A stretch of 64,000 nucleotides of DNA from Gonapodya sp. JEL0774. Its lineage: Eukaryota. The position numbers and the translations under genes are program-made. Shown here piece by piece: positions 1 to 37,929 of this stretch (within the stretch, counting starts at the first letter, position 1; each line of letters opens with the position of its first letter). The stretch spans positions 1 through 64,000 of the forward strand of contig JADIIX010000124.1 of assembly GCA_027604505.1 (NCBI GenBank), read 5' to 3'. Below the pieces are notes generated by a model. The model was given only the letters and a program-made list of their open reading frames with translations, ran no database searches and was not told where the DNA came from.

Positions 1-1391
1 GAACGAAATCATGGGTTTTAACGTGCCATCACGAGAAGGATGTGTTGACCAGGTGGCACTGGCCATGTGGAAGGCCTTCTTTGATGTTGAGAGATTTGAA
101 ACAGCCAACCACAAGTTTGCGTTGAGGTGCGTACGAATTTGGGTGATCACGTTTTGGAGTCATGGTAATCTTGACGATTGGTCATTCTTCCATCCACCCC
201 TTCACTACCAACAACTTCACTCAGCATTCGGTCAGATGGCACAAGTTTGCGGCTGCATATGCGGAAGCCCGTGGCGTCTGGAGTGCCGCTCAAATTGTCA
301 GAGTATTTGAAGAAACCTCCTGAGGAACGAAGCTTGGTTGGAAAGCGGGTGGGATCCTGTGATCCAGGTCGAGACCACACGACATTTCACGCATCAGTGG
401 ACGTCCCCGACAACCTCAAGATGCCTCGACCGTATCTCCGCACAAAAGACGATTCTGGATGGGATGCTGACTACAATAGTGGCTTCTCTACAAGGGAGTA
501 CTACGATCTCGCAGGTTTCACCTCCGCCAGGTGAGCCTATTGCTGGCATGTGGAGACTTGGAATTTTAAGCAAGTTTAAACTCAAAATGTTTGTACATTG
601 GCAGGAATCTCCGCCAAAAGTGGATGGACAACAACAAGGAGATACGGCGAATAAATAAGAACATGCCCTCCCCCAAAACTGCGGAACCAGCCAGCCTACA
701 CCTGTATCTCGTGTTTTTCCTGAATCATTTGGGGCAAATGCTTGACTTCTATAGTCAGCATTGTTGGAGAAAGTGAGTGAACGAGTCATGATTTTGTGAT
801 CACGCAACGAAATGGTGATCTTTTGAATTTATCGCTCCACCTTTCCCACGCAGGCTTCGATTCAAGTCCAAGATTGGCCAACAACGGGCCCTTTCAAAGC
901 TCGTCGAGCGATTTACCCAAGGAAGAAAGCCGTCCGATTGCATCATTGCATGGGGTGCCGCCTCGTTCAACCAGTCCAGTCCCGGACATCCTACGAGTCC
1001 CAACAAACTCATTCGTAGAATGTTTGTGTCTGCTGGAGTGTTGGTAGTACTTATCGATGAATTTCGGACAAGTCGGATCTGCTCTGTTTGCCATGAATAT
1101 TTTCCCAAGAACCAAGGGGTAAAACAGAAGCTATGGGGTGTGAGGTGAGTGGTTTTGAAAGTTCCAAGCTCATCTGCCAACTGGTTTTAGCACAATGTTA
1201 TATTTTGTATTCGTGTTTTGCACTCAAACTTCAACAGATCATGTTCAACTCCAAACTGTGGTGTCACTTGGAACCGCGACCTAAATGCCGCGAGGAACAT
1301 TCTCTATCTCTTCTTCTACGCAAACGCGCGCTTCATTGAGGGTGTCGACCGTCAGATCCAACCCGGCCACTTCAACCGAAGGAACAACTAA
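1..1391 (+). CDS. Fanzor (Fanzor1-like, TnpB-family RNA-guided endonuclease), 5' end outside window, 5 exons visible
   Basis: Exons <1-126, 225-530, 605-772, 854-1144 and 1238-1391, joined by GT-AG introns, give one open frame: ...WKAFFDVERFETANHKFALSIRSDGTSL...RVGSCDPGR (RuvC-I D, 361-363)...STREYYDLAGF...LRFKSKIGQQRALSKL...IIAWGAASF...VVLIDEFRTSRICSVCH (RuvC-II E, 1059-1061; CxxC)...LWGVRSCSTPNCGVTWNRDLNAARNIL (RuvC-III D, 1278-1280)...RRNN*. Confidence 0.92.
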
Positions 1392-1559
1392 ACTCTCGCA
1401 TCGACCTTCATTGTGGGTATCTTACTGTGTATTGTCCTTCTTTCAAAAGACTAACTGCGGTTTATTTAAGTTTTGATTTCATTATCTTTCTGTTCTCACA
1501 ATCCACATCCCAGATCTCCATCTCCTCAATCAATTTTCGAATTTCTTTTTTCGTCCACG

Positions 1560-1860
1560 GTATCTCTCCCAAACCATAGGGAGGTGCTTATGATCCTTCA
1601 GGTGAAGCACTTGGCTCGGTGGGGCCCCTTACTGGGTCCTGGCAGGTTGGTGTAGCTACTTAGGCAGTCTGGGATCCCTGGGCAGGTGAGATGACGGAGT
1701 GGCTCACCAACCTGGAGCAAAATCTGATGCTGGAAAGATACTAGTACAAGTAGTTGTGTGCGTTTAGTGTCTGTGCACCGGGTGCACAGACCTCCTACTG
1801 CCCTTGAAATACTTGTACATCTGTACTCTCGAATGAACTTTCCTCGCATAACATAGAAAT
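1560..1860 (+). ncRNA. Candidate Fanzor omega-RNA scaffold / structured right end of the element
   Basis: Dense inverted repeats downstream of the Fanzor stop: ctccc/gggag (1566-1583), gtgctt/aagcac (1584-1610), gggccc/gggtcc (1622-1639), caggttggtg/caccaacctg (1643-1652/1705-1714), and gtacaagta/tacttgtac (1744-1752/1810-1818) enclosing the hairpin tctgtgcacc-g-ggtgcacaga (1770-1790). The RNA identity is inferred. Confidence 0.5.
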
Positions 1861-1861
1861 C

Positions 1862-2208
1862 ATGCACACTCATTCGAAATAGATTGCTAGAGCTGCATTA
1901 CTTGATTTCTATTGTAAAAATATGAACTAAGCACATACACATGTGATAATCTACTGAGGGGATGTTTACAGGAACAAGTCAATCTACGATCCCGGTAGAT
2001 GGATGCGGAACGAGAGTTTAGTGAACGTTAGCCGTTGCAGGAGGGCCCTGCAACGTTGCCCGGGGACCACCACGGGGAGGTGTTCACTGCGGTTCAGAGG
2101 ACATTGAGACACAAACGACGAAGAAAGGGAGGAAGAACTCATGGGCCACGAAGGCAAACTCACCTATAGGTCCCCATTATATAAATTTCATTCCAACTCG
2201 ATTCATCA
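1862..2208 (+). repeat. Dispersed repeat family A, left part (inverted copy at ~37589-37929)
   Basis: The stretch aacgttagccgttgcaggagggccctgcaacgttgcccggggaccacca...gaagaaagggaggaagaactcatg...aaggcaaactcacctataggtccccat matches the reverse complement of 37.6-37.9 kb. Confidence 0.85.
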
Positions 2209-4285
2209 GCCATCTTCGCACCATTTGCCTACATACGATACCCCCCCGGACGTCGCATAGCCCGCAGGCGACCACGCGTCGTCCTGGGCACACCAACCCA
2301 CTCCCTGGGTAAACCCATATCTGAGGAGTGGGCGGAGGGCTTTCATCGGAGAGTTGGGATTGACCGAGCAGGAACCGTCCACTATGCGCATCGTTCTGCT
2401 CCACGCTGGCGTAGTTGATGCACGAGCGACTTGGGGTTGCCCCCAAGAACAACATGGCCGAAACCATGATGCCACGTTCACAGGGGATGGCACGCACAAG
2501 GACGAATCCAAGCTTGTGTTCCTCCGCTGGCTACTGGTCGCACCACCTTGTCCGGCACGCACTGGCGTGTAGGCTAGGCTCTAAAAGCAAAATCGAAGGA
2601 TGGCGTCAATTGAGAATGAGAACGATGCCATCAAAAGGGTTTGCCGGCGACTCACGCGACATGACGGCTGGATTGGTGAGTGGGTGTCGATTTCATGGTC
2701 GAAAAGTTTGGGAGCAACGAATTCAGGTTGGCCTTTTATATGCCTTCGAGGGTGCAGCAAAGTGTGCACTGCGCATGGGTCGCAGCTCCTTTGCCACGAA
2801 AATGTGCCGCAGCACAATCGGCATACACAAGCCTTGCCCCGAAGATGCCGGTATCACGTCCTCGGAACGCGTAGAGGTGCAATCAAATTATTGATGGGAC
2901 GCTCTGGCAGATTCTTGGCTGGCGAACCGAACGATGTCTTCATTTCCTCGATTGAACGCTTCATTGTCAACAAAACGCATATGCAAGTTTCCATTTAGGT
3001 TTTGCTTGTACCTTTCGAACAAGCAGGCTTCAAAAGAGGTTCCGGTTGTCCAGCTCGACGAAAGGGGCGGCCCAGAGCCACGTGAAGGCCCAGAATAGCA
3101 CGAATAATCAACAATCAGCTCAATCAAAGAGATTCTTCACGCGCGTGAACAGAAGACTCCCTGGTTTTATCCACCTCCTGCTTCGTTCCATCGTCGGGAC
3201 CGTCCGCCCAGACACTAAAGACCCGAGTGTACGCCCGAAACCTGCAAATGTGTCTCGTACGAATGTAAGCGGGGCGTTTGAGACGACCCGGCTGTGGTGA
3301 AGAGCGTCCCCTGAGCTCGTGTTGGGCGCCTTCCACCCAGCGTCACAGACGTGATCCATTCTGCCTCACACTGCGTTGGACCGCGTTCCAGCTCCACTCG
3401 AGGTCGGTACGAAGTCAATTCCAGGAGAAATACTGCGCAAATCGACTGTGAAAGACTGTTTGGCAAGTGGCAACACACGTCATCCTTGCACTGAGGCTCC
3501 CAAGATACACACTGGTCAGTGTATTCACACGCCACCACCGCATCCCACGTAAACAAAAGATCGATTGTTTCTTTTCAACATCCAGGTTCTTCCATCTCAC
3601 TCACGCGGGGCCGTTCCCCACTCCTTTCCACACTTTCCGTCGTCCTCTGCAAGCCCTGGCATGTCGCATCCGCACATGTTTTTTACTCAATCCATCAGTG
3701 ACTGGTCATAACTGATCGGACTATTACGGAGAGGACCGCTTCGTGCCGTTCAGAGAACGTCTTCCGAGTCATGTACATATCTCTACCATTATTGACGCAA
3801 ACTGATAGTGGCATATTCAGCCTCCTCAGTGCACTTCCAATGTGTGACTTCCATCATTCGTTACACCTTTATAATTCCAAAACCGGGACAGATGGCATGG
3901 GATGTTCGGAATTGCGAATGGGGGGGACGGAAGGGGCTCGTCATGCCGACGTGCCGGCCGGACAGCTCCGTTCGGTAGCTGTGGAGCTGTAGAGCGATAA
4001 ATAATTCCGTTGCAAGTGATTGTAGTGGTGTTGGTGGGAGCACAGATCGCTGCTTGTTGTTACCATTATTCGTGGCGAGTATGTTGACCAGGCAAAATTG
4101 GTGCCTGCACGCGGTTGTTTGGTCACAGTGGAACATTCCCGCAAAGCTCGCGCTTTTAATTTGGGGTTTATCTTGAGGTGGAGGTTCAAATTGTGAGCAT
4201 GGGAGTACAATTTTCGTTTTCGTATCTCTCTCGCGCTCCTCAATCTTGTACTAATAAATCATCTGCACAGTGCGGTCTCAACTGT

Positions 4286-4520
4286 TTCATCACATCCGCG
4301 GTAGCCTTATGGACTGTATCCACATCGTTAGCGTACACGCTCATGTGGTGGATGAGGAACAGAACCCAAACCAGTTTTAAATCAGCGTGTTCGACCGAGA
4401 CAAGCGTTACCCTGAACCAAACTCCGTGAGCGAAAACGATCCGTGAGCATAGGGTCACCATCCAACAGCAGAACATGTACTCTCGAGACTAGTTCCCCTT
4501 TTGGGGCCCGGATTCTCTCG
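4286..4520 (+). repeat. Dispersed repeat family A, right part (inverted copy at ~37352-37595)
   Basis: cttatggactg..tc.acatcgt...cgctcatg..gtggatgagga...aacccaaa...cgatccgtgagcata...gtactctcgag...agttccc..ttt.ggg.cc.g.attctctc is shared with the reverse complement of 37.35-37.6 kb. Confidence 0.8.
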
Positions 4521-4849
4521 CAATCGTAAAATGAGGTTGGATTACGGGCAGCAACTTTCCGGAGCGCAATCTAGACGGGGTCCGTCTCTGCCCCTCCTCC
4601 GTAGCGTTGGATTGCTGGTTGCCAACTCAAGAAGCACCGGACTTCTAAACCGGGCATGCCGGGTGGATTGTCTTAGATCCTGTCCCGGACTCACTGAAAT
4701 CACCAAGCAAAGCGGATTATAGACAGTGCATGATCTGGCCCCGATGCATGATTAGATGAAAAGCATGGGATTCAGTTTGTGAGACTGTCTTGGAAATGTT
4801 CCTCGTTCTGAGTCCGTCCAGAGAGGACAGGGGGTGTGTTGCACAAGCA

Positions 4850-4979
4850 GTCGGAGATTATTGTCCACAGGCTGGTAGCCAAAGAACCCAAGCCCTGTCA
4901 GGCGACGCAAAAGGAAAACGAATTTAGAGGCTGACCAGTTGCAAAACGCCTGGAAGGATCTTTGGCGATGCATTTCTTA
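4850..4979 (+). repeat. Dispersed repeat family B, copy 1 (direct copy at 13710-13825)
   Basis: gtcggagatt...tgtccacaggc...agaacccaagccctgt.aggcgacgcaa...ggaaaac.aatttagag.ctgaccagt...cctggaaggatctttggcgat.catttctta is present at both sites. Confidence 0.85.
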
Positions 4980-8439: not shown

Positions 8440-10050
8440 CTATAAACTAACACGAGAGAGATAATGTTCCTCCGATGGAAACCGAAATGTGAGTCCAGAA
8501 GAGGGCCGATTGGATAGCAATGGTATTTCAAGGTCAAGGCTTCCCGAGTTGTGACAAGCAGTGAAACGCTCATTTTCATGCTGTTCTATTGTCCCGGGAC
8601 TTTTCAGAAGTCCTCCATATGCTCTCATTTTCAGTCGTCTGAGTACCATTCCCCTTTGTAGCGAATACGGAATCTCCCCCATTTCGAAAAACGGGTCAGC
8701 TCCTCGGGCCAATTTTTCGGCAATCATGTTATATAGGTTGCGTCCAGCCGCATTGCGACTGTAATTGTACTCGAACATTCGAGGACATTGCCCGCGACAC
8801 TTTCCCATTCCAATAGACATCAGAAATTTAGAAGCGAGAGATTGGCTCTTATATGTAGCACTGTCGCAGTTGCTTGTCGATGTTGGTGATGTCGGTGGAA
8901 CTTGCAAAGCTCGCTCCAAAGCGGAACGAACCTCCGCTTCTGACCATCCTAAACTCTTGACCATCTTGCTCACAACGGCTGGTTCAATTTCTTGAACTTG
9001 GTGGAAGCTCCCAATAAAGTTGGTGGGTTCGCTCAGGTTATGCTTTACTCTGATATGCTTGGCCCACGATGAGGAGAGTGCGTCGGCAATGTTTGGGCGC
9101 TGATCAGCATCAAATTGCAGCATATCTTTGAGAAGTGCCGCAAGTTCCGGGGCAAGTCTTTTCTTGTCCATCAACAAGCATCTTCTTTTACAGACGGTAG
9201 GTGATAGACCACCATCTTCATTGGGGTTGCGGTATGCATGTTGCAGCTGGGCAACTGTCAATCCAAGAGAGTAAACATCGCTTTTCTGGGACACGAATGC
9301 AAAACGATTCCTGCATTCTGGAGCTTCGTACGCTCGGGTACCACCGAGAAATCGAACAGTGCCGTCTGACAGTGCTTGGAGGACTGTACCCCAATCGACC
9401 AACGTGGGCGTTCCATCCTCGCTCACCACATAATTTGCGGGCTTTACATCACCGTAATAGAATCCAAACATATGGACATTGTTGAGCCCAATAAAGAGTC
9501 GGTACAGCAACAGTTCAAAAATTGCATCAAACTTTCTCTTGCCCGAGGGGGAGCTTCGAGCTTGAACTCCAAGTGACTTCGCAAATTCAAGGGCAGTTAA
9601 ATCGCCTGCATGAGCAGTAACAATATAAAGAGAGTCCAGTGTCTGCACGACCTGCAGAGTTTCTGCTAGGTATTCCAATCCTGATAGAAGTAGACCGGTT
9701 TGTGCTTCTGCTACGTTTGGTGACAGTGTGAATTGGTCCCCAGTTGTCTTCTTGATGACTACGAAGCGGCCGCTCTTCTTATCTTGCGCTTTCCAGACTT
9801 CAATTGACTGTCCACCGGCCACCAGCGGAGAGAAGTTTTCATAATCGGCGGCAAATATGTCCTGAGCCGTCATTCCAGAGTTCTTCACATAGACAAATAC
9901 TTGATCTCTGTGATCGCGTTGAGAGTCTAACTTCTCAGAAATCGCTTGCGGCTCGTAAGAAGACTCTTCGTTTGTGATTTTGGCTTGGCCTGAAAAGTAC
10001 AAACATTCGTATTGGGATGCATGGTCTCGAATCAGACGATGTGGAATCAC
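8440..10050 (-). CDS. Divergent Ser/Thr protein kinase (single long ORF)
   Basis: VVIKK (subdomain II), YGDVKPANYVV (catalytic loop), LVDWGT (DFG variant), GGTRAYEAPE, KSDVYSLG and RPNIADAL. The first in-frame ATG is near 9873. Confidence 0.85.
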   Translation of the reverse strand: MIPHRLIRDHASQYECLYFSGQAKITNEESSYEPQAISEKLDSQRDHRDQVFVYVKNSGMTAQDIFAADYENFSPLVAGGQSIEVWKAQDKKSGRFVVIKKTTGDQFTLSPNVAEAQTGLLLSGLEYLAETLQVVQTLDSLYIVTAHAGDLTALEFAKSLGVQARSSPSGKRKFDAIFELLLYRLFIGLNNVHMFGFYYGDVKPANYVVSEDGTPTLVDWGTVLQALSDGTVRFLGGTRAYEAPECRNRFAFVSQKSDVYSLGLTVAQLQHAYRNPNEDGGLSPTVCKRRCLLMDKKRLAPELAALLKDMLQFDADQRPNIADALSSSWAKHIRVKHNLSEPTNFIGSFHQVQEIEPAVVSKMVKSLGWSEAEVRSALERALQVPPTSPTSTSNCDSATYKSQSLASKFLMSIGMGKCRGQCPRMFEYNYSRNAAGRNLYNMIAEKLARGADPFFEMGEIPYSLQRGMVLRRLKMRAYGGLLKSPGTIEQHENERFTACHNSGSLDLEIPLLSNRPSSGLTFRFPSEEHYLSRVSL

Positions 10051-10115
10051 CCACTATTTAAACATGAGGTCTTCACATTTGTCAATGAAGTCTACAATGC
10101 AATATGAATGAGGAT

Positions 10116-13630: not shown

Positions 13631-13709
13631 GTGTGCGATGCGAGAATACGAGATTCTGTACTCCGTGCGCGAGTGTGGAATGGGAAGACGCGACTGCCCT
13701 GCGCAAGGG

Positions 13710-13825
13710 GTCGGAGATTTTTTTTGTCCACAGGCAGAGAACCCAAGCCCTGTTAGGCGACGCAAGGAAAACAAATTTAGAGACTGACCAGTGACCTGGA
13801 AGGATCTTTGGCGATACATTTCTTA
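13710..13825 (+). repeat. Dispersed repeat family B, copy 2
   Basis: Direct, diverged copy of 4850-4979. Confidence 0.85.
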
Positions 13826-23800: not shown

Positions 23801-25460
23801 GGAAAGATAGTTTTGGGGGTTCGAGTTGGGTGCGCCTTTTGCGAAACCGTGATGCAGAGTTGTCTCATGTCCGCTGGTGAAAGCCAATTATGACCACCGT
23901 TCTCTTTTGTTGTTCACATCTCTAGCCCGTGCTCACTTTGATCAAAGCACTGTGCCACAACCGCGCGCGGCAGAGGAGAATGCTCCACAAGTGTGTGGAC
24001 GCGTTCGAGGGGTGTCAAGCTGAAGTGAGTTTCGATATTCGAACTGAACAAGGTTTCGCGGTTGTGTCTCGACGGTGGAGGAAAATGGTATTGCCTATGT
24101 GTTTCTGAGATATTGACGGAGGAAAATGGTATTACCTATGTGTTTCTGAGATATTGACGGAGGAAAATGGTATTGCCTATGTGTTTCTGAGATACTGACG
24201 GTGGTGCGTGTTTGTTGTTGGTTTCGGCTGGGTTGTCTTGCGTGTGGGAAAGGCAGAGGCGATGGATACCGAACTGCATGGGTTGATGGTGACGCATGGG
24301 ATTATCAAGGTTGGTGGAACATGAGTGTTAATTGTTTTCAGGACTAAGTATAACGCGCAATCTCCTTCGTATACAGGAGGTGAAAAAGACTATCATCTAG
24401 TCGTTCGGCCATTGTTCCCGAATCTGACGGTTGACTGTGCATTCACGAAGACAATCGACACATACTTCCTCTCTTCTTGGATCTACCACCAAAAACTCCG
24501 CCTTCTCGAGAACATTCTCATCATGGGATTTGAACTGGAACTATACAGCCCGTACGAATATGTGATGATCTTGTGGTAAGCATTTCGAATCGCCGTCCTC
24601 GAGGCATCCGACAAGATCTCCCATTCTTCCGGTTTCTACAGGTATCTCCTAGCCATCCTTGATGCTCACCATAGTCATTTACGGAGAGTGGAGAGTATGA
24701 CTGCGGCCCGTGAGCGGACATTGACAAAACCGGGTTCTGGGAAGTCCGCTGGCGCTAAAGCGAAGCAGCAGGCAAAGGAACCGCAGCCAAGTTTAAACTT
24801 CTTGGACATTTTGTTCGTATCCGGTATGACGGATTTTGTGAGAGCGCATATGCAAGTGGGTTACACTCAACTTTTTTCGGGGCGAGTGTCATCCTCTCAG
24901 AAAGGTTGTAGATTCACCCTTCTCATTTTTCATGATTTTTCACAATCAGCTGGCTGCGTCTTTAACAAATCTTGGGATGATTCCGAACCCTCAGTCAGAC
25001 TTTGATGACGAAAGTGTGCGATACGCACACCGATTTAGATTATTTTCGAGGCTCGGGAGCCCGAGGATTGCCACATATGAGGAGTTCGTGGGAGATTTCG
25101 AGGAGATGCGGCGGCAGGTCAGTGAGGGCGCTGACAAACCCATCAGATTTGCTCTTACTGTTACGTCACCGCAATCGTTTGCACAAGCCCAAGCTGCTTC
25201 TCCACTCGGCGCAACAATTTCAAACCGCAAAGAGTATGTTTGATCATATTGTGTCGCTTCCACCTACAGCGACGCGTACTGAGCTGTGCAATGACGAGTT
25301 TTCACTAAGTTTGCGGGCACTCGCGAAGAATTGTGTATTGAATGGAGTAGTGGTCAAGCTCCTGCAGACTGTCGCGGAAGGCGGTGGGGTGGGCGACAGA
25401 AAAATTGCACCCCAATTAGGGGTCGGATCTTTCCCGGTGTGGAGTTTTGTAAAGCGGTAG
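20858..25460 (+). CDS. MAK10: NatC N-terminal acetyltransferase auxiliary subunit (Mak10/NAA35)
   Basis: Spliced LQIGQLLHSSAFTLHEAMAAVE|IMDPKMDIG, LCHNRARQRRML, LIMGFELELYSPYEYVMILW and RYAHRFRLF, all typical of the Mak10 family. Confidence 0.88.
24077..24201 (+). repeat. Intronic tandem repeat, 3 x 41 bp
   Basis: Unit ggaggaaaatggtattgcctatgtgtttctgagatattgac starts at 24077, 24118 and 24159, with 1-2 mismatches. Confidence 0.95.
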
Positions 25461-36695: not shown

Positions 36696-37351
36696 GCGAA
36701 ATTGATACTCGTGCTTTGTTGGGACTCATTTTAGATACTATTGTGTACTATGGTGCCTACTTCCTCTGTTTGAAGAGACAGTCCACGTCAATTGTGGGAA
36801 GTGCCTACCAAAGCTTCTCAGAGAAATTCCTCTGGAATTGTAAATCATGGCATGTGGGAGCTTCGTTCGATGACATTCGACCGGACAACAAAGGTGACCA
36901 CTGCGCACGTTCTAAGCAACAACCACAAACAAACTTTTGTATGTTCTGGTGATTCATACTTCGATTGCGGTCCCCGGTTCACATCAGTGTGAGGTGCAAG
37001 CATCAGTTCAGAAGATCACTGGCATAATCGTCCAAAGTCCAAACTGGACGAGCTACTACATCCCCTGATAGACAGCTTTTCAAAAGCGTAGTCAATCAAT
37101 AATAGCTGCTTCTGGTTGAGAAAAGGTAAGTTGCTTTCAAATTCTCCCTGTCGGACCCACCAGCACTTGGTCCCCTCTGCAACGAGGAACAAGTCCAAGA
37201 CAGTCTCGGAAACTGAATCCATGCTGTTCATTCAATCAAGCATTGGGGACGAGATCATGCGCGGTCTACAAACCCGTTTCACTTGGTGATCTCTTTGATT
37301 GTGGATGGGAAAGATGCTTCCTCACTGTCATCAAACCATATGTCCGATCGG

Positions 37352-37929
37352 GAGAGAATTCAGGCCCAAAAGTGGGAACTCACTCGAGAGTACACGTTTC
37401 TGTTGTTGCGCGCTTTCCACTTATGCTCACGGATCGCTTTGCTCACGCGATCGCTCTGCTCACAGAGTGTGAGTTGGAGGCAACGGTTGTCTCCGTCGGA
37501 CGCGCGGACTAAAAGGTTGATTTGGGTTGTGCTCCTCATCCACTGCATGAGCGCGTACGATGTCGATGCAGTCCATAAGACCCAGATCGATGAATGGAGT
37601 TGGAATTGAGTGAGATTTGGAGGATGGGGACCTATAGGTGAGTTTGCCTTCGTGGCGCATGAGTTCTTCCTCCCTTTCTTCGTCGTCTGTGTCTCAATGT
37701 CCTCTCCAGCGCAGTGAACACCTCCCCTGTGGTGGTCCCCGGGCAACGTTGCAGGGCCCTCCTGCAACGGCTAACGTGCACCGAACTCTGGTTCCGCTGC
37801 ATCTACCGAGATCGGAAGATTGACTTGTTCCTTGAAATGTCCCCTTAGTAGCTTATTAGTTCATGTGTATGGGTAGTTCATCTTTTAAAATAGAAATCAT
37901 CACCTGATCAATTTCATTTGAGTGTGCAT
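37352..37929 (-). repeat. Dispersed repeat family A, uninterrupted inverted copy
   Basis: Its reverse complement aligns contiguously to 1862-2208 and then to 4286-4520. Confidence 0.85.

Follow-up and report, generated by a model that had tools for sequence, protein, structure and literature searches.

Positions 1–1391 of the window (the whole 64,000-nt stretch of Gonapodya sp. JEL0774 DNA that was analysed) very probably hold the 3′ half of a spliced Fanzor1 gene whose Asp-Glu-Asp triad and C4 zinc finger are intact, and the whole protein would probably act as an RNA-guided DNA endonuclease of a transposon-derived element. Membership of the Fanzor1 family is close to certain, and present-day nuclease activity is judged, by analogy, to be slightly favoured. 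The genus Gonapodya belongs to Monoblepharidomycetes; the spliceosomal-type introns, the letter-identical NCBI record of JEL0774 and a Pkinase ORF on the same contig indicate a eukaryotic host and no bacterial contamination.

An earlier note on this DNA had proposed that four GT-AG introns conceal the gene, and the proposal was borne out. Removal of the four introns, all of the GT...CAG type with the donors GTGCGT, GTGAGC, GTGAGT and GTGAGT, leaves 347 codons from base 2 with a single stop at 1389–1391, and the remaining two frames of the spliced sequence contain 16 and 8 stops. Keeping intron 1 or 2 shifts the frame, keeping intron 3 adds three stops and keeping intron 4 adds two. Each intron ranks first among the frame-keeping GT/GC-AG alternatives within 60 nt (24, 15, 5 and 7 alternatives, respectively). 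An HMM was built from 127 of 149 homologues, with the query excluded, P0003 dropped for internal repeats and others dropped for a trimmed length outside 230–520; it matches the four-intron product as one domain with 324 bits, gap-free at every junction. The four junctions are also those of the NCBI model KAJ3337404.1, and a profile-to-DNA spliced aligner recovered all of them; two extra in-frame introns suggested by the aligner (271–312 and 432–479) were rejected, because the residues they encode align to the paralogs P0002 and P0011. Resting on homology and splice signals, the four junctions are considered confirmed. The spliced aligner found no intron position common to the window and related loci in 11 of the 28 such loci (0/11). 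The inner exons are 306, 168 and 291 nt long and, since all introns share one phase, each of the three could be skipped in frame; this uniformity may be due to chance. The intron density is 3.8 per kb of coding sequence.

Table. Coordinates of the features of the Fanzor1 3′ half and its flank in the window.
Feature	Position	Strand	Basis
Coding exon, 5′ end open, frame from base 2	1..126	+	Residues 1–17 gap-free against P0002 and P0011
Intron 1, 98 nt, GT-AG, phase 2	127..224	+	Splice signals, HMM, NCBI model, spliced aligner
Exon: WED end, RuvC-I (D88 at 361–363), clade-specific insertion after RuvC-I	225..530	+	HMM, motif; domain names by likeness to SpuFz1
Intron 2, 74 nt, phase 2	531..604	+	Splice signals, HMM, NCBI model, spliced aligner
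Exon: long helices of RuvC insertion	605..772	+	HMM, predicted structure
Intron 3, 81 nt, phase 2, in-frame stops if kept	773..853	+	Splice signals, HMM, NCBI model, spliced aligner
Exon: lid-equivalent loop, RuvC-II Glu (E269 at 1059–1061), first Cys pair (1080–1091)	854..1144	+	Motif, profile
63-nt in-frame stop-free stretch, most likely coding	1047..1109	+	Removed as fifth intron in KAJ3337404.1
Intron 4, 93 nt, phase 2, in-frame stops if kept	1145..1237	+	Splice signals, HMM, NCBI model, spliced aligner
Last exon: second Cys pair (1242–1259), RuvC-III Asp (D311 at 1278–1280), stop	1238..1391	+	PF07282, 26.6 bits (cut-off 26.3)
3′ non-coding stretch, expected place of omegaRNA and element right end	1392..1825	+	Expectation from PMC10432273

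The catalytic residues and the four cysteines named in the earlier note are present as D88, E269 and D311 and as C276, C279, C299 and C304, with E269 sitting seven residues ahead of C276. D88 is matched in 122 of the 127 homologues (4 gaps), E269 in 119 (7 gaps) and D311 in 97 (25 gaps); of the 19 strongly conserved columns that it covers, the query retains 18, the median of 93 homologues being 95%. The four-intron product contains the TnpB/Fanzor superfamily pattern D-X(125,275)-[TS][TS]-XX-[C4 zinc finger]-X(5,50)-RD (PMC3627910), in which the zinc finger was coded as C..C.{5,80}C.{1,6}C, as well as the Fanzor1/Fanzor2 trait described in PMC10711439, i.e., a DPG in RuvC-I and a C-terminally shifted RuvC-II Glu just ahead of the zinc finger.

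NCBI has a differing model of this gene; a search with exon 4 retrieved it as KAJ3337404.1, a record of Gonapodya sp. JEL0774 named 'hypothetical protein HDU93_001104, partial', and the contig that it comes from is 66,299 nt long. The 309 residues of the model agree fully with the four-intron product, apart from a start at position 53 of the window and the loss of 21 residues through the removal of 1047–1109 as a fifth intron. Were this model right, and the stretch spliced out always or at times, the product would be a nuclease-dead RNA-guided binder; the stretch has GT...AG ends and its removal keeps the frame, as the NCBI model has it, and yet this reading is very improbable. The ends of the stretch, GTACTT/AAG, differ from the GTGMG/CAG of the four introns, it contains no stop, and its removal would take away E269, T272, S273, C276 and C279, each of which falls in one of the most highly conserved columns. 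KAJ3337404.1 matches the family HMM in two pieces with 274 bits, against the single-domain score given above, and the four-intron product outscores it with 140 of the 149 homologues, by a mean of 19.5 bits, part of which comes from the 17 extra N-terminal residues. The two published Fanzor patterns present in the four-intron product are absent from KAJ3337404.1, which also has no precomputed Pfam domain. From the sequence comparison, the fifth intron is judged to be an annotation error.

Profile, motif and fold tests all support the Fanzor1 identity with the intact triad and zinc finger that the earlier note had suggested. A full HMMER search over 1.84 billion representatives yielded 671 relatives, and a profile built from 111 of them (A1) matched the PDB entries of SpuFz1 (E-value 1.2e-69), GtFz1 (2e-52) and PpFz1 (2.7e-51) over most of their length, far ahead of the mimivirus Fanzor2 (8.5e-14 over 66 positions) and TnpB/Cas12f (3e-9 or weaker). 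Exon 4 alone matches PpFz1 (E-value 8.4e-05), the RuvC-II motif being identical. Structure prediction was made for P0001, which is without the 21 residues holding E269; the model has a pLDDT of 88.5, its best six Foldseek matches are all Fanzor1, and it aligns to residues 298–633 of SpuFz1 (VIA) with a Z-score of 14.8 over 264 residues (rmsd 4.2). By this alignment, the encoded part covers RuvC, the zinc-finger domain and the last portion of WED, and REC is absent.

The ten best relatives include two JEL0774 paralogs, three Amoeboaphelidium proteins and five metagenomic sequences. The paralogs, KAJ3336482.1 (P0002) and KAJ3338170.1 (P0011), share about 43–48% identity with the window protein, and a G. 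prolifera fragment matches it at 52%. The gene models of P0002 and P0011 stop before RuvC-II, at an apparent read-through into unrecognised introns, and have no Pfam match; as far as their sequences indicate, both are probably further hidden Fanzor1 genes. Catalogues based on protein annotation can thus miss spliced Fanzors, as the NCBI model without both patterns and the two truncated paralog models illustrate. An Atlas search with the N-terminal part of P0002 gave a weak lead to DUF8286 clusters (0.91, 133 shared features). Seven loci on viral contigs have 24–34% identity, and a first metagenome scan found no relatives among 50 pattern matches.

In a quick tree of 42 rows, from which the named Fz1/Fz2 references were left out, the window protein, three Gonapodya sequences and two fragments form one group (SH-aLRT 100) on a long stem of 1.16, four of its six rows being fragmentary, and the window protein has a short end branch of 0.19. 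The grouping and the low identity of the paralogs would fit a domesticated Fanzor1, that is, a long-resident, intron-rich Gonapodya lineage that has no transposon and serves the host with guides in cis or trans. The model of P0011 ends at the codon where intron 2 of the window sits, which suggests a shared intron and would agree with long residence. Domestication is nevertheless rather improbable: introns are common in mobile Fanzors (PMC3627910, PMC10530073), the next kilobases hold repeats and genes that give no transposon link either way, and the cutting of the gene by a contig edge suggests that it lies in a repeat. Less probable again, and no more than a speculation, is the combined reading in which a long-branch, intron-rich Gonapodya Fanzor1 lineage of its own has come off its transposon to serve the host, and the 63-nt stretch is an intron of optional use, its retention giving a DNA cutter and its removal a nuclease-dead RNA-guided binder. 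Domestication or splice switching, if real in this lineage, would be relevant to the role of Fanzors in their hosts.

Under the preferred reading of a mobile-element Fanzor1, the N-terminus lies outside the window, as the earlier note had also stated; openness and homology of the frame extend to base 2, and the upstream half is absent. Residues 1–17, which precede the NCBI start, align gap-free to P0002 and P0011, and the first exon therefore continues past the window start; the 5′-partial KAJ3337404.1 suggests that base 1 is the contig start or lies close to it. The window has only the 3′ half of the gene, and the REC/TAM-reading part probably lies beyond the contig start. By analogy, the missing upstream part would comprise from about 280 residues, on the scale of SpuFz1, to 460–700 residues, the length of the corresponding region in the Gonapodya paralogs.

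Because half of the gene is outside the window, upstream breaks are possible, which counts against the preferred reading. The gene could be a relic, recently orphaned or broken at the 5′ end, with an intact-looking 3′ half, a lost start, omegaRNA or element ends, and no working nuclease; this is unlikely, and it is the most serious of the alternatives. The flanking 2–5 kb contain old repeat pieces 70–87% identical to copies elsewhere in the window, and a word-index search among 666 candidates found no near-identical protein copy beyond the locus itself (one match), a blank that also counts against the preferred reading; the SpuFz1 family is, by contrast, about 82% identical. The blanks of the word-index search reflect its low sensitivity, as the full HMMER search gave 671 relatives. 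PMC10432273 reports 19 full-length genes among 42 Fz loci of S. punctatus, and partial copies are therefore common. Against a relic stand the 347 stop-free codons, the four clean introns, the conserved columns kept by the query, the short end branch in the quick tree and a frame that is open and homologous to its first codon.

If the gene is instead the functional Fanzor1 that we prefer, then by analogy with SpuFz1, GtFz1 and PpFz1 the host would transcribe and splice it, and the protein would bind an omegaRNA derived from the DNA that runs from the stop codon to the right end of the element. The last ~15 nt of this RNA (14–15 nt), coming from the flanking DNA, would guide the complex to a matching TAM-adjacent site, where REC/WED would read the TAM, as the Fz1 structures suggest (PMC11423790), RuvC would cut both strands and repair would favour retention or spread of the element. 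The protein is a Fanzor1 that looks catalytically complete and comes from a divergent clade of Monoblepharidomycetes, which makes it a candidate for TAM and editing screens.

By analogy with SpuFz1, an omegaRNA would be expected from the 3′ flank of the gene, with the guide read outside the element (PMC10432273). The 3′ flank of the window gene has no second copy within the window and resembles the corresponding flank in none of 26 related loci, and its first part (1392–1541) folds no better than shuffled sequences (z 0.3–1.0), which counts against the preferred reading; the ends of the relatives also lack a fold signal (15 folds, z from +1.4 to −1.9). Among 76 windows scanned, those picked out were 1620–1720 (z −2.35) and 1735–1825 (z −3.04) as omegaRNA candidates; among 492 random windows, 4.1% reach −2.35 and 1.8% reach −3, and since 2–4% of random windows score equally, the stem-loops at 1621–1714 and the hairpin at 1743–1816 are leads only. 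The stem-loops open with a 7-bp stem, like SL1 of the three Fz1 omegaRNAs (PMC11423790). The hairpin, with z of about −3, consists of a near-perfect 10-bp hairpin (1769–1791) within a 9-bp inverted repeat and could mark the end of the element. No Rfam match in the 3′ flank reached the gathering score, and no transposase domain was found among 52 ORFs or in 10 window ORFs, the latter result again counting against the preferred reading; the left end of an element would lie outside the window. Related metagenome loci, compared pairwise, remain similar for ~140–250 nt beyond the stop before they part, the pattern expected of element ends and a point in favour of the preferred reading (L001/L002, L016/L020, L014/L015 versus L022, L023/L026); judging by sequence, the shared 140–250 nt of such pairs are candidate right ends and omegaRNAs of those elements.

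Beyond the flank, an old dispersed repeat with 70–87% identity occupies 1862–2207 and 4306–4807 and occurs inverted at 37181–37929; the copy adjoining the Fanzor gene has ~2.1 kb extra (2208–4305) in comparison with the other copy, and 4840–4979 is repeated at 13700–13825. The ORFs of the dispersed repeat contain no Pfam domain. The idea that the downstream repeat is a ghost element or an LTR was rejected, as no Fanzor remnant lies by the second copy (best E-value 0.76) and there are no clear ends. The repeat bears an HDV-like ribozyme: a descriptor search on both strands of the window found exactly two full folds, at 2175–2021 (minus) and 37626–37781 (plus), with a 7-bp P1, P2, P3, P1.1, P4 and a C in J4/2, the second copy having one P2 mismatch. 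With the same descriptor, three shuffles and 28 related loci gave no match; the fold at 2175–2021 scores 30 bits with Rfam RF02682, under the gathering score of 44, and the ribozyme core had no match in viral contigs. The ribozyme was rejected as a part of the Fanzor system, being antisense and absent from the related loci, and proximity is the sole link seen between the two. In both ribozymes, the 81-nt J1/2 contains a 77-nt GTGAGT...pyrimidine-rich...CAG stretch (2163–2087, minus, and 37638–37714, plus),; if it were removed, P2 would form again and the ribozyme would become compact. The ribozyme is possibly interrupted by a spliceosomal intron; the idea is a hypothesis, because the window has many GTGAGT sequences (32 and 37 on its two strands). 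The literature search found no paper linking an HDV-like ribozyme with a spliceosomal intron. Elsewhere, the window contains an intronless-looking 537-codon protein kinase frame at 8443–10053 (minus; Pkinase, E-value 4e-20) and a 41-nt unit present three times in tandem at 24077–24204 (96–98% identical).

SpuFz1 (PDB codes 8gkh and 9ceu–9cez; PMC10432273) is the closest characterised system, being the best profile and fold match, with the same D-E-D triad around a C4 zinc finger and an early-diverging flagellated fungal host. It differs in its ~20% identity to the window protein and in its element, which is described as 2.1 kb long, with a single ORF, inverted repeats of 30 nt and a mapped scaffold of 75 nt, and as present at 42 loci (PMC10432273), whereas the window gene has four introns in half a gene, and its RuvC-I motif is DPG instead of DPN. 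PpFz1 (9cf0–9cf3; PMC11423790), which resembles the window protein in profile score and RuvC-II motif, carries a large RuvC insertion (FRI), unlike the window protein, whose alignment to the family HMM shows no long insert at that place. GtFz1 (9cer–9cet), similar by profile, has Asn as the third catalytic residue, where the window protein has Asp (PMC11423790). CRe-1/2/3 (CrFNuc) of Chlamydomonas reinhardtii are likewise multi-exon Fanzor1 genes, with 5 and 10 exons and EST support, but they are Helitron2-borne with mapped ends and RNA (PMC3627910, PMC10530073). CrFNuc-1, the one intron-containing Fanzor1 assayed in PMC10530073, formed an RNP without cleavage, which counts against activity of the window protein.

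Searches for prior reports did not find the JEL0774 locus in the supplements of PMC10432273 (one PDF of which was unreadable) or PMC10711439, any entry for Gonapodya or JEL0774 in the two supplement files of PMC10530073, or a paper on a Fanzor in either, the literature search covering papers outside subscription and judging those on JEL0774 by title. A 2013 paper described Fanzor1 genes with several exons (PMC3627910), and intron densities of up to ~9.6 per kb were given for Fanzors in 2023 (PMC10530073). The nearest published entry is KXS17374.1 of Gonapodya prolifera, listed as FZ1 near Amoeboaphelidium entries in the supplement of PMC10432273 and also among the Fanzor matches in that of PMC10711439; its 845 aa extend over 3,489 nt, and by arithmetic it is therefore spliced. 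It belongs to the same genus, and its first ~400 residues resemble, by eye only, the N-terminal parts of P0002 and P0011, but it comes from another species and another locus. Spliced Fanzor1 genes, including a spliced Fz1 of G. prolifera in two published catalogues, are thus already in print, and the JEL0774 locus adds a member to them.
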